64,000 bases of DNA from an uncultured Candidatus Saccharimonas sp. (lineage in GTDB: Bacteria > Patescibacteriota > Saccharimonadia > Saccharimonadales > Saccharimonadaceae). Below, in pieces: positions 6,726 through 38,140 of this stretch. The DNA lies in assembly GCA_964407205.1 (NCBI GenBank), contig CAYOUQ010000001.1:29425-93424 (forward strand), given 5' to 3'. The position numbers and the translations under genes were made by a program. The first letter of the stretch is position 1; each line of letters begins with the position of its first letter. The notes beneath the pieces were generated by a model. It was given only the letters and a program-made list of their open reading frames with translations. It searched no databases and was not told the DNA's origin.

Positions 6726-7796
6726 CTAGATTAGTCCTTCAAAAAGAAACCGTGCTGCGACAAATAGCTGAGCTAAGGCAGCTATTACAACAATTACAAC
6801 AACCGGCCAAGGAAATCGACGTTTAAGTCTTTTTCCGCCCAAAGCGACCACATTTGCTTGCCTATCACCTACCCTTTCATCCGCATAGTGTTCGGTTCTT
6901 ATGTCGGTCCTTGCGCCAACTGTCTCGATAATCTTAAATAGTTTTTCCATCTTTGCAGTATCAAAGTAGTTGAATGGCACTTCAGAGTATACAAATAATT
7001 TATCATCGATCAGCTCGGCGTCAAAGGATCCAGACTCGTCGATAAACGAAGCCATTAAATCTGGCGTAAAGATTTGTAATGCATCACGTTTATATTCTTT
7101 TGGAGCGAATAAGGTAAAGTGTTTGTTGAAATCACCTTCTAACTCTAATATCTGGTCCTTACTAAAGCTTACTGGTATGTTACAAAGTGATATTCCAAAC
7201 AATTTAGTATTATTCTGGTGTGAATCCAGAACAATCTGTGGTACATTTCTATCAAGTTGAATCATTATATAGCCACGATAATGCGTGTTTTTGTCATCAC
7301 CCGTACCTGTAACAAACCGGTAATTTGAGATTTCGAAGGGGCTTGCGTCGCCCGTCTTTGGTTTGATTAACTGATCAAACCCCATCCGACCGCTTCCAAT
7401 ATTAAAGATGATTCCCTGGTGTGTTAAATATAACGCCGTCTTGTGATATTCAAGTCCGTTAGCTTTCGCAAAATTAGTCAGACGAATTAGTTTTGTGTAA
7501 GTGTCTATTTGATACTTCCTTATTACTAATAACGCTACGACGATTATTGATGTATACAGAAACTTCAATGGATCAAGGTTTGACTTGGACGCCAAGACGA
7601 ATAATAAAGATGCTAGGTTAATCCCTATTGCGATTAGCGCCATTGCTAGAATAAGTTTTTTCGAGACTACCGAATGTTTCTTGCCGTCGGCATCAACAAA
7701 ATTCTTTATCACTGTATCATCAACTTTTTGTGTCAATGGAGAATAATCAATCTTCATTATTTGTCTAGTCATTAGTGTCCCTTTCGTATATATCAA
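6726..7796 (-). CDS. Membrane protein, possibly DUF3137-like; hypothetical
   Basis: 356-aa ORF with two N-terminal TM helices, a soluble middle region and a C-terminal TM helix. The DUF3137 resemblance is from memory only. The true start may be an internal Met (about 7772 or 7757), because the annotated start overlaps yvcK by 32 nt. Confidence 0.5.
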   Translation of the reverse strand: MIYTKGTLMTRQIMKIDYSPLTQKVDDTVIKNFVDADGKKHSVVSKKLILAMALIAIGINLASLLFVLASKSNLDPLKFLYTSIIVVALLVIRKYQIDTYTKLIRLTNFAKANGLEYHKTALYLTHQGIIFNIGSGRMGFDQLIKPKTGDASPFEISNYRFVTGTGDDKNTHYRGYIMIQLDRNVPQIVLDSHQNNTKLFGISLCNIPVSFSKDQILELEGDFNKHFTLFAPKEYKRDALQIFTPDLMASFIDESGSFDAELIDDKLFVYSEVPFNYFDTAKMEKLFKIIETVGARTDIRTEHYADERVGDRQANVVALGGKRLKRRFPWPVVVIVVIAALAQLFVAARFLFEGLI

Positions 7797-8787
7797 TTAT
7801 TGCAGCCGCAACCGCCTTGGTGTCATGTCTAATTAACGACCTAACTGCTGGTATCTTATCGGCTTTATGTTTTTTTATCTCTTCCCCCAAGAAGTTTCCT
7901 GCAATTGCTTGATATTTCGCCTTTTTTAACTCGGCAGTATCTACTTTCACAGAGAAAGCTCCCTCTTTTTTATACCTGCTTGCCATATCCTTACGTGGGT
8001 GTTGTTGGTTATACAACACGTAGTCAAGAAATGGTGCTCCAACAAACCGTTCGATTTCTTTAGCATGATCACTTACCGAAAAGCCAGTAGTTTGGCCTTT
8101 TTTTGTCACAAGGTTTGATACATAAACACAGATTGCTCTTGTATCGATTAGGGCCTGGGCTATGCCGTCAATTATCAATAACGGCCCCAGCGAAGTGTAT
8201 AGGTCACCTGGCGCCACTACTACCATATCGGCTTGCATTATTGCGGCGATAGCGGTCGGATTAGCTGTAGCGGCTGGGACAAGGGACAAAGTTGCCCTGC
8301 GTGGATCTTGTTTGAAATAGTGTGAGTCAATCACCCGTTCACCATGTAAAATTATGCTATCCTTTGGCCACTCCATCCTGAGACGCACATTATCAAGTGT
8401 CGCAGGTATGACGACTCCGTTTATTCGCAGTATCTCCGACGCTGTCTCAACAGCTTCGGAAAAACTACCACTAACCTTTTCAAGCGCGGTTAATAAAATA
8501 TTGCCAAATGGATGACCACCAAAAGTTCCCTCTTCAAATCGATAGTCAAACAAATCTCGTACTTTTGGAGAATCGCTTAACGCGACCAAGCACTGTCTAA
8601 TATCACCCGGGGGCAAAGCACCCAATTCATCACGCAAAACTCCTGTGCTGCCACCATCATCAACCATATTAACAATTGCCGCCAGCTGTTTTGTGTGCTT
8701 TTTTAGAGCCGACAAGATAGCAAAGCTACCAGTCCCGCCGCCAATTACTGTGATTTTAATATCATTTTTTACAAATGGATCATTCAT
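7765..8787 (-). CDS. yvcK: YvcK/CofD-like protein (UPF0052, gluconeogenesis factor family)
   Basis: VIGGGTGSF and VNMVDDGGSTGVLRDELGALPPGDIRQC motifs characteristic of the YvcK/CofD family. Confidence 0.85.
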   Translation of the reverse strand: MNDPFVKNDIKITVIGGGTGSFAILSALKKHTKQLAAIVNMVDDGGSTGVLRDELGALPPGDIRQCLVALSDSPKVRDLFDYRFEEGTFGGHPFGNILLTALEKVSGSFSEAVETASEILRINGVVIPATLDNVRLRMEWPKDSIILHGERVIDSHYFKQDPRRATLSLVPAATANPTAIAAIMQADMVVVAPGDLYTSLGPLLIIDGIAQALIDTRAICVYVSNLVTKKGQTTGFSVSDHAKEIERFVGAPFLDYVLYNQQHPRKDMASRYKKEGAFSVKVDTAELKKAKYQAIAGNFLGEEIKKHKADKIPAVRSLIRHDTKAVAAAIIDIYERDTND

Positions 8788-10301
8788 GACTGAACAATAT
8801 CCTCTCCGAAGTGTTTTTGCAAACGCGCGATTATTGAACCCTCGTGCCGGCCAAGCAGTTCACTTAATTCCTGAACAGACGCGCCATTTTCAAATCGCTC
8901 TTTTAGTATAACATCCTGTTCGGGTTGCCACGGCTTGAAAGCATTAGGGTGGACCTCGCGCATCTTGGCAATCTTTTCATTCCACCCAGTCTTTGCCTTC
9001 TTTTTTTGTTGGGGTAATTCAGACAATTTGGAGCAAGTCTTTAGATTTTTGAATCTAGTGATATCTTTGGCAGCTTTTTCTTTTAATGTAACATCAATTA
9101 TTTGCGCATCTTCGCTGACTTTTAGAGCCATTTGATTTATACCTAGCAAATACAGATTATTTAAATCTCTTACACGGCTTAACGCAACATAGCCCATACC
9201 TTCTACAAAAGCTTTCCTTAAATCAACCCTGGCGGCGTCCAGTGTCATACCTTGTGACTTGTGAACAGTAATAGCCCAAGCCAAACGTAATGGTATTTGT
9301 GTGATACTGGCGCGTTTTTTGTCGCCGTCACGCAGCTCCCAAGTATCAGGCACCATCGAGACAGTTTTGCCATTTTTAAATTCAACAACTGGGTAGTTCG
9401 TGATTGGCTCAAAGTCCGTAATTATTCCTAGGCTACCATTGACATACTTTTTGTCTGGGCTGTTTTTTACAGCCATAACTAAAGCGCCTTTTTTAAGCTT
9501 AAGCTCGGCTGGAGCCAGAACCGAGCGCTGTAAAGCTTCAACATAATTCTTACCACCGGTGGTCGCTTGAGTATACGACACCTCATCTTCATCAATCTCG
9601 CCTAATTTTTCATCATTTATTCTATCGACATCAACGTTAACGGTATGAAGTTCCGTAATCTTTTCGTCACCAACCGGCTCAACTCCAACTCGCGCCAATA
9701 AAGCATCAGCATGCGTCCGACGTAAATCACCTGCTCGCATTGCATTCAGTATATCTAGCAGTTCGCCAACTTCTTGTCGATGCTGCTCTTCTAAATAACA
9801 AATCACTGGGTCTAGTTCAGTCCAGACATTGCTGTTGACAACAAATCCCCCTGCTCGGCTGTCCCCTCGATTAATCGGCGGTAACTGGAAAAAATCACCA
9901 CTCATAATAATCTGGATGCCACCAAAAGGCTCGTCTTTCTTTCGGACAATACGACAAACTTGATCAACCATGTCCAGCCTGAAATCATGCAACATCGACA
10001 CTTCATCGATAATTAATATGTCAGTCTTTTCAATAATCTCACGCCTTGTTTTCGAGATATTATCAACAAACCCGGGCTCAATCTCGTCTGAGATACCAAT
10101 ACCACTCCATGAGTGAAGAGTCGTCCCGCCCAGATGAGTGGCAGCCAGACCGGTCGTTGCCGTAACCGATACATGCTTGCCGTCGGACCGTGACAATTTA
10201 ATAAACTGATTCAGGATATACGTCTTACCAGCGCCGGCAGGGCCGGTTAGCAGCACGCTCTCCCCCGAGAGCATAATCTCAAGCGCAAGTTCTTGCTTCA
10301 T
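8784..10301 (-). CDS. PIF1/RecD-like SF1 DNA helicase with C-terminal HTH-like tail
   Basis: Walker A (GPAGAGKTY), Walker B (IIDEVSM) and a C-terminal VHKSQG motif as in RecD/PIF1. 4-nt ATGA overlap with yvcK. Confidence 0.8.
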   Translation of the reverse strand: MKQELALEIMLSGESVLLTGPAGAGKTYILNQFIKLSRSDGKHVSVTATTGLAATHLGGTTLHSWSGIGISDEIEPGFVDNISKTRREIIEKTDILIIDEVSMLHDFRLDMVDQVCRIVRKKDEPFGGIQIIMSGDFFQLPPINRGDSRAGGFVVNSNVWTELDPVICYLEEQHRQEVGELLDILNAMRAGDLRRTHADALLARVGVEPVGDEKITELHTVNVDVDRINDEKLGEIDEDEVSYTQATTGGKNYVEALQRSVLAPAELKLKKGALVMAVKNSPDKKYVNGSLGIITDFEPITNYPVVEFKNGKTVSMVPDTWELRDGDKKRASITQIPLRLAWAITVHKSQGMTLDAARVDLRKAFVEGMGYVALSRVRDLNNLYLLGINQMALKVSEDAQIIDVTLKEKAAKDITRFKNLKTCSKLSELPQQKKKAKTGWNEKIAKMREVHPNAFKPWQPEQDVILKERFENGASVQELSELLGRHEGSIIARLQKHFGEDIVQS

Positions 10302-10357
10302 TACTATTCATTATAGCTTATATTTTTACCGGCCTATGTATTAATTTAGTGCATCAG

Positions 10358-10473
10358 CCCGTTGCTATTTATTTTTTATCAACAGACTGTGGCGGTAACC
10401 AGCCGAACGCCACGTGCTGGCGCTTGCGCCACACGTAGAGTGTGCTGTTGATAAAAATGTAAATAGTAGCGGG
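10358..10473. repeat. About 115-nt imperfect palindrome with two internal G+C-rich hairpins (three-way-junction-like)
   Basis: The outer arms are CTATTTATTTTTTATCAACAG and CTGTTGATAAAAATGTAAATAG. The inner hairpins are GTGGCG...CGCCAC (10390-10412) and TGGCG-cttg-CGCCA (10418-10431). Confidence 0.65.
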
Positions 10474-10487
10474 CCTGTACGGTCGAT

Positions 10488-11465
10488 CTAACCTCTCGGT
10501 GGCTCGCCCTCTGGATCCCCTAGTAGTTTTTTGTTTTTAACTTCGTATCGTCGACCCGTAATTTCACTTGTAATATAATCTTCATTAATTAAATTAACGA
10601 ATGTGTCCAGGTCGTTCCCGTCCATAATAATTATTGCGCCACTATCATCAGTCATTAATTCCAATTGCATATCATCACAATAGCTGATTACCTGCTCTTG
10701 GGTAATATCTCCAATCTCAACTTTTTGTAATTTGTTGACTGTTTTATTGCGGTCTTTAACCATTTTCTGTAGGTCCAACCCATCAGGAAAACTAAGCCGA
10801 AAACGCTTTTCAATCTCGGCCACTTTTTTGTCGGCCAATGCTTGTTTTTTATAATCATAATTAAATAAACGTTCAAATTTACTTTGGTTAAAAATAAATA
10901 TTTGATCATCAACTATTAACACTTGGTTATCTGCTGGTATTTTTACTCCGGCATCAGCTTGAAAAATTCCAAACTTACCATCCTTAAACTCCCAGGCTGT
11001 TGCGCCGTTCAATACATTACCCTGTGATATTAGTTTTATTGAATAAAACGGTTTGTCAGGTTTTGATTTATCGGTAAATCTGGCGACTATACCCTTCACT
11101 TTTTTAAACTCGTGGTCTTGGTCACTGAATTCAACAATATCGCCACGTTGATGCTCAATTAAGTGCAGCATCGTTTCGGCACGGCCAACGTTGCTTAGAT
11201 TAGTCCTTAGTAACACATTATCTTCGCCGTCTGATAATTCAAATTCCCGGATACCCAGTCCAGTGCCTGCCCCCAGATTAATAAAATTTATCAAATCAAA
11301 CAAAAATAACGGTTTGATTTGTTGGTCCAAATCAGCACTAAATTTCGTAAAAAACGGCGTGTAGTGTTTGTTGAATAAAAAGAATTCGACGTCAAGTTCT
11401 TTCTTTATTTCATCAATCCGGTTAGCCCACAAAAAGATGTCTGTTCCCTCGTTCGGTTTGTCCAT
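10488..11465 (-). CDS. Hypothetical protein, possibly DUF4868/KwaB-like
   Basis: 325-aa soluble ORF. The central IFIFNQSKFERLFNYDY segment and the C-terminal FVNLINEDYITSEITGRRYEVKNKKLL resemble my recollection of the DUF4868 domain. Not verifiable here. Confidence 0.35.
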   Translation of the reverse strand: MDKPNEGTDIFLWANRIDEIKKELDVEFFLFNKHYTPFFTKFSADLDQQIKPLFLFDLINFINLGAGTGLGIREFELSDGEDNVLLRTNLSNVGRAETMLHLIEHQRGDIVEFSDQDHEFKKVKGIVARFTDKSKPDKPFYSIKLISQGNVLNGATAWEFKDGKFGIFQADAGVKIPADNQVLIVDDQIFIFNQSKFERLFNYDYKKQALADKKVAEIEKRFRLSFPDGLDLQKMVKDRNKTVNKLQKVEIGDITQEQVISYCDDMQLELMTDDSGAIIIMDGNDLDTFVNLINEDYITSEITGRRYEVKNKKLLGDPEGEPPRG

Positions 11466-11495
11466 ACTATATTTTCCTGTTCGTAATACAACGAA

Positions 11496-11954
11496 TTATT
11501 TTTTATAATTTATATCTGATTCTGGCGACAAGTATTGCCCCGACAGTTTTTCTTCGCGAGCCCTATTTGCCCAATCGTCGGCAATTTCATTTGGTATTGT
11601 CCCGACATGACCACGCACCCATAATATCTCTGCCTTGGAATTGTGATATGCTTCGAAGATTTCTTTAACCTTCTCTAGGTTTTTTATATCACCATTCTTT
11701 TTTGTCCAGTTGTTTTTCTTCCAACCATGCCCCCATTTAGTTATGACATTCACCCAGAATTCACTGTCAGTATAGATACGACATTCTTGGCCGTCAGCAT
11801 TTTTTAATGAAGCCAAGATCGCCTCTCCTTCCATAATAATATTCGTTGACATATCAGAATGTCCAACAATTACCAATTCTTCGTTTTTTATAGCCGCAAA
11901 ACCACCCGGACCAGGATTCGGACTGCAACTTCCATCAGTATAGTAATTTATCAT
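11496..11954 (-). CDS. rnhA: Ribonuclease HI
   Basis: 152 aa with the DEDD(H) pattern: YTDGSC, EGEAI, YTDSE, RGHVG, NEIADDWA. Confidence 0.9.
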   Translation of the reverse strand: MINYYTDGSCSPNPGPGGFAAIKNEELVIVGHSDMSTNIIMEGEAILASLKNADGQECRIYTDSEFWVNVITKWGHGWKKNNWTKKNGDIKNLEKVKEIFEAYHNSKAEILWVRGHVGTIPNEIADDWANRAREEKLSGQYLSPESDINYKK

Positions 11955-12060
11955 TGTTATCTATAATAACATGGCAAATGCCGCAAAGTAAGACTTGAAA
12001 TTTTTTAGCACAAGCATAATAATAGAGGTACTTGGACGTGAGGTCCAGTGAAAGGATAAT

Positions 12061-12147
12061 ATGGGTAAAGAGAAAAGTACTGGCGGCGACAAAAAGGTTA
12101 AAAAACCTAAAGTCCCAAAGGATAAAAAGCCTAAAAAAACTTATTAA
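12061..12147 (+). CDS. Candidate 28-aa lysine-rich small protein (MGKEKSTGGDKKVKKPKVPKDKKPKKTY)
   Basis: ATG preceded by an AAAGGA SD-like motif. A possible TTGAAA/TAATAA promoter lies near 11994-12021. A perfect 24-nt palindromic terminator follows at 12174-12204. Too short for the ORF track. Confidence 0.3.
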   Translation: MGKEKSTGGDKKVKKPKVPKDKKPKKTY

Positions 12148-12173
12148 TTTTCGCCGTCACAAATAACAGTGAC

Positions 12174-12204
12174 AGACACGCTAGATCTAGCGTGTCTTTT
12201 TGTT
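12174..12204 (+). terminator. Perfect 24-nt palindrome plus T-run; terminator for the small lysine-rich ORF
   Basis: AGACACGCTAGA/TCTAGCGTGTCT followed by TTTTTGTT. The stop codon of the convergent 195-aa gene lies inside it. Confidence 0.65.
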
Positions 12205-12774
12205 ATCAAAAAACCTCTTGGTTATAATAATGCAACAAACAAATAGGTTGAATAAAACTAAATGTAATGGGTATACAAAACCTGTTATCGTCCAGCTGCC
12301 GACTGTCAATAAGATACATAGCGAACCCAAGAAAGTTACAAAATATGTTACAAACGTTTCTTCATTTGGTTTTTTCCATGCATGCATTAATGTTGGAACT
12401 CCACCAATTATTTCGGTAAGAACCAGAACCATAATGGCAACATCAGCTGAATCTAATAATTTCCATACGATTATTCCAACAATTGAACCAACAAAACACA
12501 CCGTATCAAGTCTACTAAACGATTTATCCCCTTTCTTCCATCCAATACCAACAATTAATGACATCAGTATTACGACTGTCGCCAGCAATAAAGCTGTTGG
12601 ATACTGGCTGCTATAAAATGCAGCCAATGATGCAATCCCATTTGTCATTATCCATATTACCCAAGTTACCAGTCTTGGTTTTGTTTTACCTTGTATTGTG
12701 TCAACTAAATAAGGGATAATAGCTAGAGAAGTAAGCCCTATGCCCAATACCGTTAGAACAACCACCCAGTCCAT
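12187..12774 (-). CDS. 7-TM membrane protein, PQ-loop/SWEET-like (hypothetical)
   Basis: 195 aa with about seven hydrophobic helices. The first helix ends IPYLVDTIQGKTKP, reminiscent of PQ-loop repeats. Confidence 0.45.
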   Translation of the reverse strand: MDWVVVLTVLGIGLTSLAIIPYLVDTIQGKTKPRLVTWVIWIMTNGIASLAAFYSSQYPTALLLATVVILMSLIVGIGWKKGDKSFSRLDTVCFVGSIVGIIVWKLLDSADVAIMVLVLTEIIGGVPTLMHAWKKPNEETFVTYFVTFLGSLCILLTVGSWTITGFVYPLHLVLFNLFVCCIIITKRFFDNKKTR

Positions 12775-34625: not shown

Positions 34626-34723
34626 TTTTTAACACGGCCAAATTGTTAATGTACGACATTGCACATCAATAGCCCCACCTGCTAATAGAGTAATATTATC
34701 ACCTTCTTTAAAAAAATCAATCA

Positions 34724-34750
34724 AATAAAAAAGCCCGTTTCGTGGGCTAG
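34724..34750 (-). terminator. Probable terminator after the DUF1874 gene
   Basis: On the minus strand: AGCCC-acgaaac-GGGCU followed by UUUUUUAUUU. Confidence 0.5.
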
Positions 34751-34849
34751 ACGGTTTTTATATCGCAAAAACTGCGGCTCAATTCTATCTGTAGAGCGAC
34801 AGGTTCGGTACTAAATTTTTTTCCTAGGTCGATAGCTAGACCACCGAGT

Positions 34850-35193
34850 CTACGCAGACAAATCGTCAATATTGACGATTCGAACGCGCCAGAACTCGAT
34901 CTTTGCCCCCTCGGGCAGTTCGGTTGCGCCTTCAGGCAGACGCGGCCCCGAATATTGGGCTACGTACAACTCGTCACCTTCGTCTAAAACGAGCGTCTGC
35001 CTGTTGATTGCGACTTCTCTGCCAAGGACGCGGGACACGACACGCGCCGTGTCGCTGTGACCGATAATGCTGATGCAGTCTTCGGGCACTGATTCGGGGA
35101 TTATCCGACGCATAGTGATACGTCTGTCAGGCGAAGGTCCATACCCTCCTCCAGCATGTTGATCGAAAACGCGTTTCCCAGATACTTTGACAT
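34850..35193 (-). pseudogene. DUF1874 (AcrIII-1/Crn2, STIV B116/YddF-like) cyclic tetra-adenylate ring nuclease gene, split by a frameshift near 35104-35115
   Basis: The ATG at 35193 (SD GGAGGTG) gives MSKYLGNAFSINMLEEGMDLRLTDVSLCVG, ending at the TAA at 35103-35101. A second frame from 35113 gives RRIIPESVPEDCISIIGHSDTARVVSRVLG...GPRLPEGATELPEGAKIEFWRV. Together these carry the DUF1874 hallmarks NAFSxNML, GHxxTA and RxxEG. Confidence 0.75.
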
Positions 35194-35347
35194 ATTATTC
35201 ACCTCCTATGGGCAATCGCCATATGTCACAGCGGTATCGGCTGAGGTTTTACCTCTTTTGGCCAACCAATTTATTTTGGTTTCGGTTTTATCCGAAGATA
35301 CTAGATTTTTTCGGTGTCTTACCACTCAAACTGATAATTTCTCATTA

Positions 35348-35534
35348 AAATGGTTCGCTTGACGCACGAACCTTGAGAGTGGTTAAACTCAGCGGCCCTA
35401 CTCTTACGGACTTAGGGGCTTTTCCGGCGGCCGGTGGGTGTTTAGAGTGGAGTCGGTTTTCCTATCTCGGTTTTACGGTGAACAAAATCACTCAACGCTA
35501 ACTCCGGTTTATATGATCGCCCGTGCAGCCAGCA
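35348..35534 (-). ncRNA. Candidate structured sRNA or 5' leader domain (family unknown)
   Basis: It starts about 7 nt after the 35541-35569 promoter and is G+C-rich, with stops in all frames. It ends in the hairpin GGUUCG-ugcgucaag-CGAACC (35372-35352) followed by AUUUUAAU. Confidence 0.3.
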
Positions 35535-35540
35535 CTGATA

Positions 35541-35569
35541 ATTATCACATCTAGTTCTGAATACGTCAA
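35541..35569 (-). promoter_or_regulatory. Sigma-70-type promoter driving the long leader or sRNA upstream of the DUF1874 gene
   Basis: On the minus strand: TTGACG (35569-35564), a 17-nt spacer, then GATAAT (35546-35541). Confidence 0.55.
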
Positions 35570-35631
35570 TTTTGTGCTTACACAATTGTATTTTACAGGG
35601 GTGGAAAAAGTAAAGTTTTGTCAATTCGGTT

Positions 35632-35660
35632 TTGACATTGTTTAATATCTGTGCTATACT
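35632..35660 (+). promoter_or_regulatory. Sigma-70-type promoter of the TrmB-like gene (predicts a leaderless mRNA)
   Basis: TTGACA (35632-35637), a 17-nt spacer, then TATACT (35655-35660). The ATG at 35668 is 7 nt after the -10 box and has no SD. Confidence 0.55.
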
Positions 35661-35667
35661 GCCAAGC

Positions 35668-36402
35668 ATGAACATCGATATATTGCTAAAAATAGGCCTT
35701 ACCGAAAGCCAAGCAAAAGGCTATTTGGCGTTAGTTGAATTTGGCCCACTAACTCCATCCGATATTGCCGACAAAACTGGCGAAGCCAGAACTAATGGAT
35801 ACGCCATATCAGATAAATTAGTCGAGTTGGGGCTAGCTCGAAGGACCAACAGTATAAAGTTAAAGATTGAGGCTGAAAATCCTACAAAAATTCGTTCATT
35901 AATATCATCTCGTCAGCAACAATTAAAAACTGTAAGTGACGAGTTTTCAGCGATTTTGCCTAGCTTTTTATCAAAATTCAGGCTTACCAGCGACCAACCG
36001 GGCGTCATAAATGCCGAAGGCGTCGAAGCGCTAAAGTTAGTCTACGACGAGATTATCGCTACAAAAAAGGACGTCTTGATATTCCCTAGCAACCATGACC
36101 GCGACGATCCAAGAATTTCTGCATTAATCGACCAACAGATTGCGAGGCAGCGCGATGCGGGAATTAAATCATTAGCGCTCATACCGGCCGATCAGTATGA
36201 CTTGGTCAAAGACCAACAAGACGGCCTATTATCTATGCGAAAACTTCCCGATGGCGTGTTCTTTGATGCTCAAATTATGGTATTTGGCAATAATATCGTG
36301 TCGACTGTATTTAGGCACGGAATTGTTAGTACTATCATCTCTAGCCCCGATACCGCTGCCACTATGCGTAATATTTTCTTTGCTATTTGGGATAGACGTT
36401 AG
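35668..36402 (+). CDS. TrmB-family winged-helix transcriptional regulator
   Basis: MNIDILLKIGLTESQAKGYLALVEFGPLTPSDIADKTGEARTNGYAISDKLVELGLA is a TrmB-type wHTH. The start is set at ATG 35668, because the ORF-track start at 35632 lies inside the predicted promoter. Confidence 0.75.
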   Translation: MNIDILLKIGLTESQAKGYLALVEFGPLTPSDIADKTGEARTNGYAISDKLVELGLARRTNSIKLKIEAENPTKIRSLISSRQQQLKTVSDEFSAILPSFLSKFRLTSDQPGVINAEGVEALKLVYDEIIATKKDVLIFPSNHDRDDPRISALIDQQIARQRDAGIKSLALIPADQYDLVKDQQDGLLSMRKLPDGVFFDAQIMVFGNNIVSTVFRHGIVSTIISSPDTAATMRNIFFAIWDRR

Positions 36403-38140
36403 TATCCAGGCCTAACCTTTCTCCAAACTTCTTGATAATTTTATTCATAAAATCTTCTGTATTAATTATGGTAGCACCATTTTGGTCCTTAAATATATCA
36501 AAAGCTTCTGCGCTATGATGGCCCAAAACAGCCTTACCGTTAATAATCTGTTCTCCCTTTTCCAACATATCACATACAAAAAAGCCTACTTTTGAAGCAT
36601 TTACATAGCCTTCTTTTGTTTCACCCTTTTGTTTTTCAACCTTTTTACTCCCAATATCCAGTGATAAGCCGTAGGTTATATCATAGTCTAATCTAATATT
36701 TAAAATATTTTCTCTATTTTCTTCTGATTGACCTTGTGGAATCATCCCCGCTGGAATTGGAATGTTAAATGCAATTCGTTGATTGGACCCAAACAACGAG
36801 TCGGCAGTCCTTAGGCCCATCCATAAACCTTCTGACTTGTCGTCAGTAGATTTGAATGATTGGCTAACAACCTGGCCATACAGCCCGTATTCTTCGTTAT
36901 TCAATGGCTGAAACTGACCAGAAACTAATGACTTAGCAACTTTTTCGCTCGCAAATCGTAAAATGTTGATTACCGAAATAGCACTCTCTATCTCTTCGCT
37001 TGACGACTCGTCACTTGAAATAACCGCCAAAAGCTCGGTCGTTCTTTTTAGCCATGCGGTATACACTGCAGTATCAAAATGGTCGACAGTGTCCTTAAAG
37101 TACTTTGAAATGTCGACGGCTGACTGACGAATACTATTGATGCTTTTAAATATCTCGAGCGCCCTTGGTTTTTCTAATTTTTCAGCGATATGTAACAGTT
37201 TATCGCCAAAATGGTCACCAAACTCAAGCGAAAGAAAAGAATTGATCAACTCGACCTTTTCACTGTCATCACCATATTCTAGAAGATGCTTTTTTAATTT
37301 GCCATACCTTGAATCATCTGCTTCAATTGCAAAATTCAAAAAACGTAACTGGCTATTTAGTGGGATTTTACTGATATCAACACCAAGTTCTGATATAAAT
37401 ATATTCTTTGTCCTCGTATTGTGAACTATTCTCAATAATCTTGAATCCTGTAGCGAAAGTCCAAAACTGTTTTCGGGTTGCCATTCTGCAACTGATGCCT
37501 CACGCCCGTTCCTGTCAAAAATTTTATTTGGGCAGCGATCGACAATATTTATCTCAGCACAAACACCTGGTGCAATTTCTGAATAGCGTGCCGTCATATA
37601 GGGAGGCGCGTTCAATATTTTATACTTTTTCATAGCCCTCTCACTTTCGTCCAACTCACTCTTAAGGTAAGATAAATAGCCATCCGCCCCATCGTTATTC
37701 AACTTTTTATAACCCTCAGACTGATCGCCAATGTTATCGCCAAAGCTTGTTCTGTTTTGAGGCTTTAATGAGTAATTTAACGCAACATTTCGCTTATGAA
37801 GTTCGTTTCTATCTCGTAAGTTCTGTACCCTACTCTTGAATATAGCCCTGAATAAAACCGGAATATCTTGTGCGTTTGAGGCGTATTCAAGTTTGTCAAC
37901 ATAATTATTAAAGCCTTCATCATCACCAGTTGTAATAAAAAAATACCCATCTCTCTCGGCAGCCATTGCTTGGTTTAATACATATACGGCTGAATCATCA
38001 TCACTATCACCATTAAAAGACTTATAATAATTCGATGCCAGTTCAGAGTCGCGCCCTATCTTCTCTTTTGCTTGTTTCTGCAGTGTATATGGCACATTCT
38101 GTCCATTATCCCCGGTTGTTTCTATTATTCTGCTCTTCAT
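36383..38140 (-). CDS. Orphan hypothetical protein (585 aa)
   Basis: Long uninterrupted ORF starting 9 nt after the serS stop. No TM segment, P-loop or other motif recognised. Its 3' end overlaps the convergent TrmB-like gene by 20 nt. Confidence 0.6.
   Translation of the reverse strand: MKSRIIETTGDNGQNVPYTLQKQAKEKIGRDSELASNYYKSFNGDSDDDSAVYVLNQAMAAERDGYFFITTGDDEGFNNYVDKLEYASNAQDIPVLFRAIFKSRVQNLRDRNELHKRNVALNYSLKPQNRTSFGDNIGDQSEGYKKLNNDGADGYLSYLKSELDESERAMKKYKILNAPPYMTARYSEIAPGVCAEINIVDRCPNKIFDRNGREASVAEWQPENSFGLSLQDSRLLRIVHNTRTKNIFISELGVDISKIPLNSQLRFLNFAIEADDSRYGKLKKHLLEYGDDSEKVELINSFLSLEFGDHFGDKLLHIAEKLEKPRALEIFKSINSIRQSAVDISKYFKDTVDHFDTAVYTAWLKRTTELLAVISSDESSSEEIESAISVINILRFASEKVAKSLVSGQFQPLNNEEYGLYGQVVSQSFKSTDDKSEGLWMGLRTADSLFGSNQRIAFNIPIPAGMIPQGQSEENRENILNIRLDYDITYGLSLDIGSKKVEKQKGETKEGYVNASKVGFFVCDMLEKGEQIINGKAVLGHHSAEAFDIFKDQNGATIINTEDFMNKIIKKFGERLGLDTNVYPK

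Follow-up and report, generated by a model that had tools for sequence, protein, structure and literature searches.

A frameshifted DUF1874/AcrIII-1/Crn2-family ring nuclease gene, probably acquired horizontally, in a Saccharimonas-like chromosome

Here we have characterized a gene of the DUF1874 family, to which the AcrIII-1 and Crn2 ring nucleases belong, in a 64-kb stretch of contig CAYOUQ010000001.1 from an uncultured Candidatus Saccharimonas; the whole of this stretch is referred to as the window. It is very probable, in our assessment, that the locus is a single-gene cassette in a Saccharimonas-like chromosome, encoding a ring nuclease of 114 amino acids (aa), that was acquired horizontally and has recently been broken. 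As assembled, the gene is divided between two open reading frames (ORFs) on the minus strand. ORF1 has 30 codons (35193-35101, with its ATG at 35193-35191 and its stop codon at 35103-35101) and reads MSKYLGNAFSINMLEEGMDLRLTDVSLCVG. ORF2 encodes 87 aa, runs from an ATG at 35113 to 34850 in the -1 frame relative to ORF1, and its product is present as P0001 in an NCBI-derived protein collection. An initial annotation, made from the letters of the DNA, had recognized a 30-codon ORF behind a GGAGGTG Shine–Dalgarno (SD) sequence and an 87-aa ORF in another frame, and these are indeed two halves of one DUF1874/AcrIII-1/Crn2 gene. The joined product (hereafter the repaired protein, which contains ...DLRLTVRITMRRIIPES...) has 114 aa and not the approximately 113 aa first proposed. 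A tblastn search of the window with the repaired protein aligned 35193-35125 to residues 1-23 (frame -2) and 35122-34853 to residues 25-114 (frame -1), and detected no second copy of the gene in the 64 kb. The position of the break also had to be revised: it had been implied to lie where the ORF1 stop codon and the ORF2 ATG overlap, and alignment with an orthologue places it at codon 24, between G35124 and A35123. ORF1 thus ends with seven residues, DVSLCVG, that are not in the true frame.

Assignment of the gene to the DUF1874/AcrIII-1/Crn2 family, which the initial annotation had made and had suggested checking against Pfam and the AcrIII-1 structures, is solid. The repaired protein matches Pfam PF08960 (STIV_B116-like, DUF1874) over residues 4-90 with an E-value of 3.3e-9 and a score of 37.2 bits (cut-off 26); this match spans both ORFs, and the 87-aa piece alone still scores above the cut-off (33.8 bits). 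Significant matches were also obtained to structures in the PDB, of which the best were SIRV1 ORF114/gp29 (2x4i, E 1.1e-8) and the complex of AcrIII-1 with cyclic tetra-adenylate (cA4; 6scf, E 5.6e-7), with further matches to STIV B116 (2j85, E 1.5e-5) and AFV3-109 (2j6b). The DUF1874 protein of phage THSA-485A, one of two family members shown experimentally to neutralize cA4-based immunity (10.1101/778746), aligns with 90% of the length at 39% identity (E 2e-15), and the ring-nuclease protein matches PHROG 5063 with an E-value of 1.9e-15. Evidence on the fold comes from an AlphaFold2 model (predicted local distance difference test score, 90.5) of P0121, an intact orthologue that is 89% identical to the repaired protein and stands in for the repaired window sequence. 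With this model as the Foldseek query, all 16 PDB matches at E <= 0.01 were AcrIII-1, B116, AFV3-109 or Csx1-Crn2 structures (template modelling (TM) scores 0.65-0.72), so that the orthologue has the fold of the family.

Residues of gp29 that contact cA4 or are catalytic have been described as N8, S11, N13, H47, S49, T50, R66, Q81 and R85 (10.1101/778746). These align to N7, S10, N12, H46, D48, T49, R65, Q80 and R85 of the repaired protein. Eight of the nine side chains are kept, the exception being S49 of gp29, which is replaced by Asp (D48), and the eight are invariant or nearly so among 58 relatives. H46 lies in a GHSDT motif, aligns to the catalytic H47 of gp29 and is itself nearly invariant in these relatives. 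The three hallmark motifs on which the initial annotation had relied are real and nearly invariant in the relatives; the repaired protein has NAFSxNM, GH and RLxEG in common with the AcrIII-1 proteins.

AcrIII-1 has been described as a dimer that encloses cA4 and makes two cuts in it, a conserved His serving as the general acid (10.1101/778746). From the family we infer the enzymatic activity, dimerization and biological role of the repaired protein. An intact protein would form a homodimer burying cA4 at the dimer interface and would cut cA4 on both sides to yield A2>P, with His46 as the general acid. Removal of cA4 would deprive cA4-dependent effectors, such as CARF-domain nucleases, of their second messenger.

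The locus is a further member of a known and well-characterized enzyme family, interrupted in this assembly, and we regard it as a modest find. It shares with the AcrIII-1 proteins (SIRV1 gp29, 2x4i/6scf, and the THSA-485A protein) the Pfam family, fold, motifs, catalytic His, cA4 contacts and a similar length, but identity is only 33-39%, Asp replaces S49 of gp29, a 1-nt deletion is present, and the gene is a cassette of its own on the chromosome of a candidate phyla radiation (CPR) bacterium, surrounded by housekeeping genes, rather than part of a recognizable virus or mobile element. Like Crn2 (of type III loci and of Marinitoga Csx1-Crn2, 8y7f/8y7g), it is cell-encoded and has the same fold (Foldseek TM ~0.7); unlike Crn2, it is not fused to an effector, has no type III genes or arrays in the 64 kb and is only 10-14% identical to the Crn2 domain. 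STIV B116 and AFV3-109, the founding DUF1874 structures, are alike in family and fold but are proteins of crenarchaeal viruses, whereas the window gene is bacterial and chromosomal. A weak PADLOC profile match (E 9e-7, residues 39-91) was obtained to Csx16, a type III-associated cA4 ring nuclease reported to be structurally similar to a viral Crn2 homologue (PMC12409355); this match is partial, the primary family of the window protein is PF08960, and we do not file the protein as Csx16.

Scanning of one genome per species identified a 2.4-kb contig (L001) of a metagenome-assembled genome (MAG) from an uncultured Ca. Saccharimonas, which has the gene order of the window (C-terminus of a 585-aa protein, TrmB-like regulator, intergenic region, DUF1874) and carries an intact, syntenic DUF1874 orthologue of 114 aa. 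In the DNA alignment of the two loci, the sole gap within the coding sequence is a single nucleotide absent from the window: L001 reads CTGACAG-T-AAGG at this point and the window reads CTGACAG/ACGTATC, with the slash marking the break. The one-base shift without a homopolymer that had been described initially is therefore borne out, and the site also has no slippery heptamer. Codons flanking the gap are codon-consistent (CGT versus AGG, both Arg), only codon 24 is damaged, and this assembly has no uninterrupted frame for the whole domain. Comparison of the window with L001 revealed no second lesion in the gene. The ratio of non-synonymous to synonymous substitution rates (dN/dS) between the two genes is 0.10 (dN 0.067, dS 0.66), with values of 0.13 upstream and 0.09 downstream of the break; for the TrmB-like and 585-aa genes next to it the ratio is 0.05-0.06. 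To judge from these ratios, purifying selection has acted on the gene essentially throughout the divergence of the window and L001. The low ratio overall and on both sides of the break, together with the single lesion, indicates that the deletion is either very recent or an artefact.

Between these two, we lean slightly towards a real mutation, which would mean a newly formed pseudogene or, within the sampled population, a strain-level variant. The frameshift may instead have arisen in assembly or sequencing, the organism having an intact 114-aa gene that works like its L001 orthologue; this is a substantial possibility that nevertheless falls short of an even chance. An artefact would account for the dN/dS values and the lack of further lesions, for the retention of all conserved residues and of an intact SD sequence, terminator and leader, and for the intact state of the L001 gene; moreover, the source seems to be a metagenome-type contig of 97,658 nt, and a mixed-strain consensus can carry indels. 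On the other hand, the site has no homopolymer, and 63 ORFs of at least 80 aa cover ~59.5 kb of the 64 kb with no other split gene noticed, such that a generally indel-prone assembly is unlikely. We also found no independent assembly of the site: neither an exact or degenerate DNA pattern of the frameshift site searched in the JGI metagenomes nor a protein-guided metagenome scan for it gave a match, and exact-protein look-ups led to a 1.6-kb Logan contig ending ~900 nt short of the stop codon of the gene. An identical HPF gene was found in SRR29243443, HPF lying ~1 kb from the ring-nuclease gene.

As written, the locus should be inactive because the N-terminal 23 residues, with three cA4 contacts, and the 90 residues with the catalytic His are in different frames. 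Loss of the base in codon 24 would thus separate the N-terminal cA4 contacts from the catalytic part of the enzyme. The break falls inside a predicted strand, beta2 (residues 22-31 in the model of the orthologue P0121), and the 87-aa product has neither beta1 nor the N7, S10 and N12 contacts. Continued function of the split gene, either through reinitiation at ATG 35113 (12 nt upstream of the TAA at 35101) with assembly of two pieces or through the 87-aa piece alone, is very improbable. The 13-nt overlap of the ORF1 stop codon and the ORF2 ATG has a geometry compatible with coupling, and the 87-aa piece does pass the Pfam cut-off by itself; however, ATG 35113 has no SD sequence, the strand beta2 would be interrupted, the piece is without residues that are invariant or nearly so in the relatives, and the orthologue is one uninterrupted ORF. 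The direction of the shift, into the -1 frame downstream of the break, would fit a programmed -1 ribosomal frameshift regulating enzyme dosage. This explanation is effectively refuted by the lack of a homopolymer or slippery heptamer at the site and by the in-frame state of L001, the only close orthologue: no X XXY YYZ heptamer occurs in the 69-nt overlap of the two open frames, and none of the 57 relatives in the family alignment (A4) shows a split.

The gene is atypical in composition. As the initial annotation had observed, it lies on a G+C-rich patch: the G+C content of 34850-35193 is 0.547 (54.7%) compared to 0.409 (40.9%) for the window, which ranks this region among the richest 0.13% of 344-nt windows; the maximum of the 64 kb falls here. 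Codon usage, which had been recommended for comparison with the genome, is atypical against the window genes as well: the G+C content at third codon positions (GC3) is 0.643, where 49 other genes average 0.370 (sd 0.044) and none exceeds 0.463. An excess is also seen in the L001 gene (GC3 0.59) and in the nearest cellular homologues, for which the values of gene and neighbours are 0.53 and 0.15 (L002), 0.78 and 0.17 (L007), 0.77 and 0.44 (L015), and 0.81 and 0.41 (L018). More broadly, DUF1874 genes of this clade in A+T-rich Clostridia and Saccharibacteria (loci including L002-L020) have a GC3 that is higher than that of adjacent genes, the difference reaching 0.6. On viral contigs (L065-L120), by comparison, homologues mostly have the GC3 of the contig that carries them (mean difference 0.06; for example, 0.16 versus 0.17). 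We therefore rejected the idea that G+C richness is an intrinsic property of DUF1874 genes, since many viral homologues match their own A+T-rich genomes. The clade-wide GC3 anomaly may have arisen through repeated transfer, biased gene conversion or selection.

Divergence at synonymous sites is similarly decoupled from that of the surroundings. Between the window and L001, dS is 0.66 for the gene and 1.1-1.35 for the flanks. Among syntenic Clostridia loci (L006, L008, L011 and L013), the DUF1874 alleles differ by dS of 0.77-1.9 and dN of 0.09-0.24 and the adjacent genes by dS of only 0.17-0.25, a pattern that suggests allele replacement by recombination.

Further evidence is the variability of the position that the gene occupies. 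The closest relatives of the TrmB-like neighbour (L145-L150) are 72-78% identical and come from loci that retain the TrmB promoter region; L145/146 and L149/150 also retain a homologue of the 585-aa partner protein. An element of ~75 nt matching 34760-34840 is retained in L145/146 alone, where it lies (at 80-124 in L145) downstream of an unrelated 340-aa gene that fills the slot. In all three of the L145-L150 locus types, unrelated genes of unknown function stand in the DUF1874 position. Conservation of the flanks with different cargo in relatives indicates that the gene occupies a variable slot, and we read the 34760-34840 element as the left boundary and the TrmB-like gene as the right boundary of this cassette slot.

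DUF1874 relatives are abundant on viral contigs, with 234 confirmed in IMG/VR, and in a neighbour-joining tree the window gene groups with genes of gut Clostridia, the Saccharibacteria genes being distributed among several clades. Taken together, the GC3 excess, decoupled dS, variable slot, viral relatives and this tentative phylogenetic hint support horizontal acquisition and cassette exchange of the gene. The gene would have entered the lineage by horizontal transfer into the slot between the 3' non-coding element and the TrmB-like promoter. Several observations weigh against the reading of the locus as a horizontally acquired, recently broken cA4 ring nuclease gene. The phylogenetic link to gut Clostridia is weak (bootstrap 42/100 versus 20/100) and was used only as a hint, and no integrase, phage or conjugation genes lie beside the gene. 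The deletion is read from an assembly and may be absent from the organism itself. For the proposed activity, the Asp in place of S49 of gp29 is one concern, and no cA4 producer or effector was found in the 64 kb. Caution is also called for by a study of SIRV2 reporting that its DUF1874 protein gp37 does not counter CRISPR during native infection and possesses a second, protein-binding activity (10.1101/2023.01.10.523387).

The initial annotation considered the gene to be unexpected in a CPR-like genome, a view that the distribution of relatives does not uphold. Fifteen of the 64 confirmed genome loci with relatives are from CPR bacteria, one of them being the syntenic orthologue, and these include Saccharimonas, other Saccharibacteria, Nanosyncoccus, Uhrbacteria, Nomurabacteria, Gracilibacteria and a 'Patescibacteria group'. 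One Saccharibacteria MAG (L048) encodes tandem DUF1874 paralogues at 9992-10306 and 10639-10959. CPR bacteria, Saccharibacteria among them, live as epibionts and mostly have few CRISPR systems. Among the papers listed by full-text searches on ring nucleases or anti-CRISPR together with CPR lineages, none links the two.

No CRISPR array and no cas10, csm, cmr, other cas, CARF or SAVED gene was detected in the 64 kb, and accordingly no type III CRISPR locus lies in or beside the gene within this distance. A PADLOC match in the window to 'CARF_LolE_TM' was rejected as a CARF protein; it involves only the transmembrane permease part of the model, in an FtsX protein. The initial annotation had also suggested looking for type III CRISPR, CARF or SAVED genes in related genomes. 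Cas10, Csm or Cmr proteins were absent from the 136 neighbours of 14 CPR homologues, and no CRISPR, cas, CARF or SAVED gene was located within 8 kb of these homologues. An AAA-Csx3 fusion adjoins the DUF1874 homologue in L028 (Patescibacteria, 10641-12359) and in L004 (Clostridia, 6922-8376). Identification of the fusion is based on PADLOC C3a67 (E 3.6e-40), PDB Csx3 AF_1864 (E 2e-4) and Pfam Cas_csx3 (22.8 bits). Because Csx3/Crn3 is itself a ring nuclease that cuts cA4, its presence beside the gene in these two loci hints independently at cA4 biology. In L015, L027 and L048, separate proteins encoded by or near the TrmB-like gene have an N-terminal domain that corresponds to the C-terminal 170 aa of the L028 fusion.

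These surroundings bear on whether the DUF1874 fold has been selected in Saccharibacteria for a role other than degradation of the cA4 of type III systems, for example binding of another nucleotide or of a protein partner. We consider such a role unlikely. It would be consistent with the lack of CRISPR, cas, CARF and SAVED genes in the window and within 8 kb of the 14 CPR homologues, with the protein-binding activity of SIRV2 gp37, and with a survey of complete genomes in which Crn2 occurred in only 7 type III loci, AcrIII-1 being found in 36 phage genomes (PMC12409355). Conservation of the catalytic His and of eight of the nine cA4-contact side chains under purifying selection argues against it, as do the AAA-Csx3 fusions, with their cA4-binding ring-nuclease domain, which tie the neighbourhood of the homologues in L028 and L004 to cA4 biology. 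If the gene does encode a cA4 ring nuclease, as we favour, then cA4 could be made by a system, of type III or another kind, encoded in a different part of the genome, for which the enzyme would be Crn2-like; alternatively, the gene may be a remnant anti-defence gene of a mobile element or may serve a function specific to an epibiotic lifestyle.

In layout the gene is a unit of its own, with an SD sequence, a terminator hairpin (the hairpin proper at 34748-34732) and a 440-nt upstream region (Table 1). Within the latter is a leader that is far more similar to L001 than are the synonymous sites of the flanking genes, which are only 42-56% identical; it should be borne in mind that this conservation is an observation on two sequences, the window and L001. 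In the leader, TTGACG-17-GATAAT at 35569-35541 resembles a promoter and a hairpin at 35372-35352 resembles a terminator. A two-sequence consensus fold has 49 pairs, with 2 compensatory changes, 1 one-sided change and 0 broken pairs. No Rfam family reached its gathering score in the window, none was found at E <= 1 around the gene, and when the window and 70 loci (71 sources, 0.94 Mb) were searched with a covariance model built for the leader, no additional copy emerged. We regard the leader as a candidate small RNA (sRNA) or an attenuator-type or other cis-regulatory RNA.

Table 1. Coordinates of the ring-nuclease gene and of adjacent features in the window
Feature	Position	Strand	Basis or remark
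Intrinsic-terminator-like hairpin AGCCCACGAAACGGGCT then T-run	34722..34748	-	~100 nt past stop codon; kept in L001
Conserved non-coding element	34760..34840	.	Between stop codon and terminator; blastn 85% over 46 nt, alignment A8
Codons 25-114 and stop codon; G45-H46 (catalytic His), T49, R65, Q80, R85, E88	34850..35122	-	
Out-of-frame ORF1 tail (..DVSLCVG), stop codon 35103-35101	35101..35122	-	Overlaps true frame of codons 25-31
Frameshift site, codon 24 minus one base	35123..35124	-	DNA alignment A2: L001 GTA (Val), window G-A
Codons 1-23, N-terminal NAFSINM motif (N7, S10, N12)	35125..35193	-	tblastn frame -2, alignments
Shine–Dalgarno sequence GGAGGTG	35200..35206	-	6 nt 5' of ATG 35193; read from sequence; kept in L001
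Conserved non-coding leader or candidate sRNA	35321..35569	-	88-93% identical to L001
Divergent TrmB-family (TrmBL2-like) regulator	35632..36402	+	Pfam TrmB, PDB 5box, Foldseek TrmBL2/TrmB

The wider setting is that of an ordinary chromosome, the window encoding FtsW, MraW, Mur ligases, SecA, HPF, aminoacyl-tRNA synthetases, S2, RRF and ABC transporters. Genes for SecA, HPF, SerRS, an ABC transporter and the TrmB-like regulator flank the ring-nuclease gene, which does not lie on a recognized virus, plasmid, integrative and conjugative element or prophage; its immediate neighbours have no PHROG or PADLOC (phage or defence) matches, and no tRNA or tmRNA was found in the window. Translation of the TrmB-like gene, whose product P0125 has 244 aa, probably starts at ATG 35668, the mechanical ORF start at TTG 35632 being the -35 box and 35632-35660 the promoter. 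This promoter, TTGACA-17-TATACT (11 of 12 matches), overlaps a palindrome, TGTCAA-N7-TTGACA, the two lying within 35619-35660 (plus strand). Five related loci keep the palindrome, which probably serves the TrmB-like gene as an autoregulatory operator. A TrmB-like gene lies within 6 kb of DUF1874 in 11 clustered loci. Nine of these belong to the set of 15 CPR loci; the other two are the window and L054, a short contig that bears the label Oscillospiraceae. A role for this neighbour as a Csa3-like sensor of cA4 was rejected, as the protein is of the full-length TrmBL2/TrmB type with a phospholipase D (PLD)-like C-terminal domain and not a CARF or SAVED protein.

The 585-aa protein (36383-38140, minus strand) is encoded convergently with, and slightly overlapping, the TrmB-like gene, and has no Pfam, PADLOC or PHROG match. 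It has homologues of 30-39% identity in L145 and L149, where they accompany the TrmB-like gene, and in L009 and L018, where DUF1874 is nearby. At ~23 kb from the ring-nuclease gene, the window also encodes a KwaB-like protein (DUF4868; 10488-11465, minus strand) with a full-length PADLOC match (E 9e-14), adjoined by a RecD-like superfamily 1 helicase (8784-10301, minus strand), the two together occupying 8784-11465. The KwaB-like gene may be a Kiwa-like defence gene.

Taken alone, the window gene is one more, broken, member of a known family. The most interesting by-products of its analysis are the conserved leader, the cassette-like slot, the clade-wide GC3 anomaly and the AAA-Csx3 neighbours in relatives. 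A bolder interpretation, which we regard as quite improbable, is that CPR bacteria keep chromosomal AcrIII-1-type ring nucleases, under purifying selection, as part of a CRISPR-independent module for cA4 signalling or counter-signalling, with the structured leader of ~220 nt, through its own promoter and attenuator-like hairpin, controlling the gene in the lineage of the window. If this were true, the enzyme might quench cA4 produced by the epibiont's own sensors or by its host bacterium, and the G+C-rich codons would be maintained as a feature of the cassette instead of only recording a recent transfer. The wider value of the finding is that AcrIII-1/Crn2-type ring nucleases recur as chromosomal and selectively maintained genes of CPR bacteria, away from visible type III CRISPR systems, which raises the question of which source makes cA4 in or around these epibionts.

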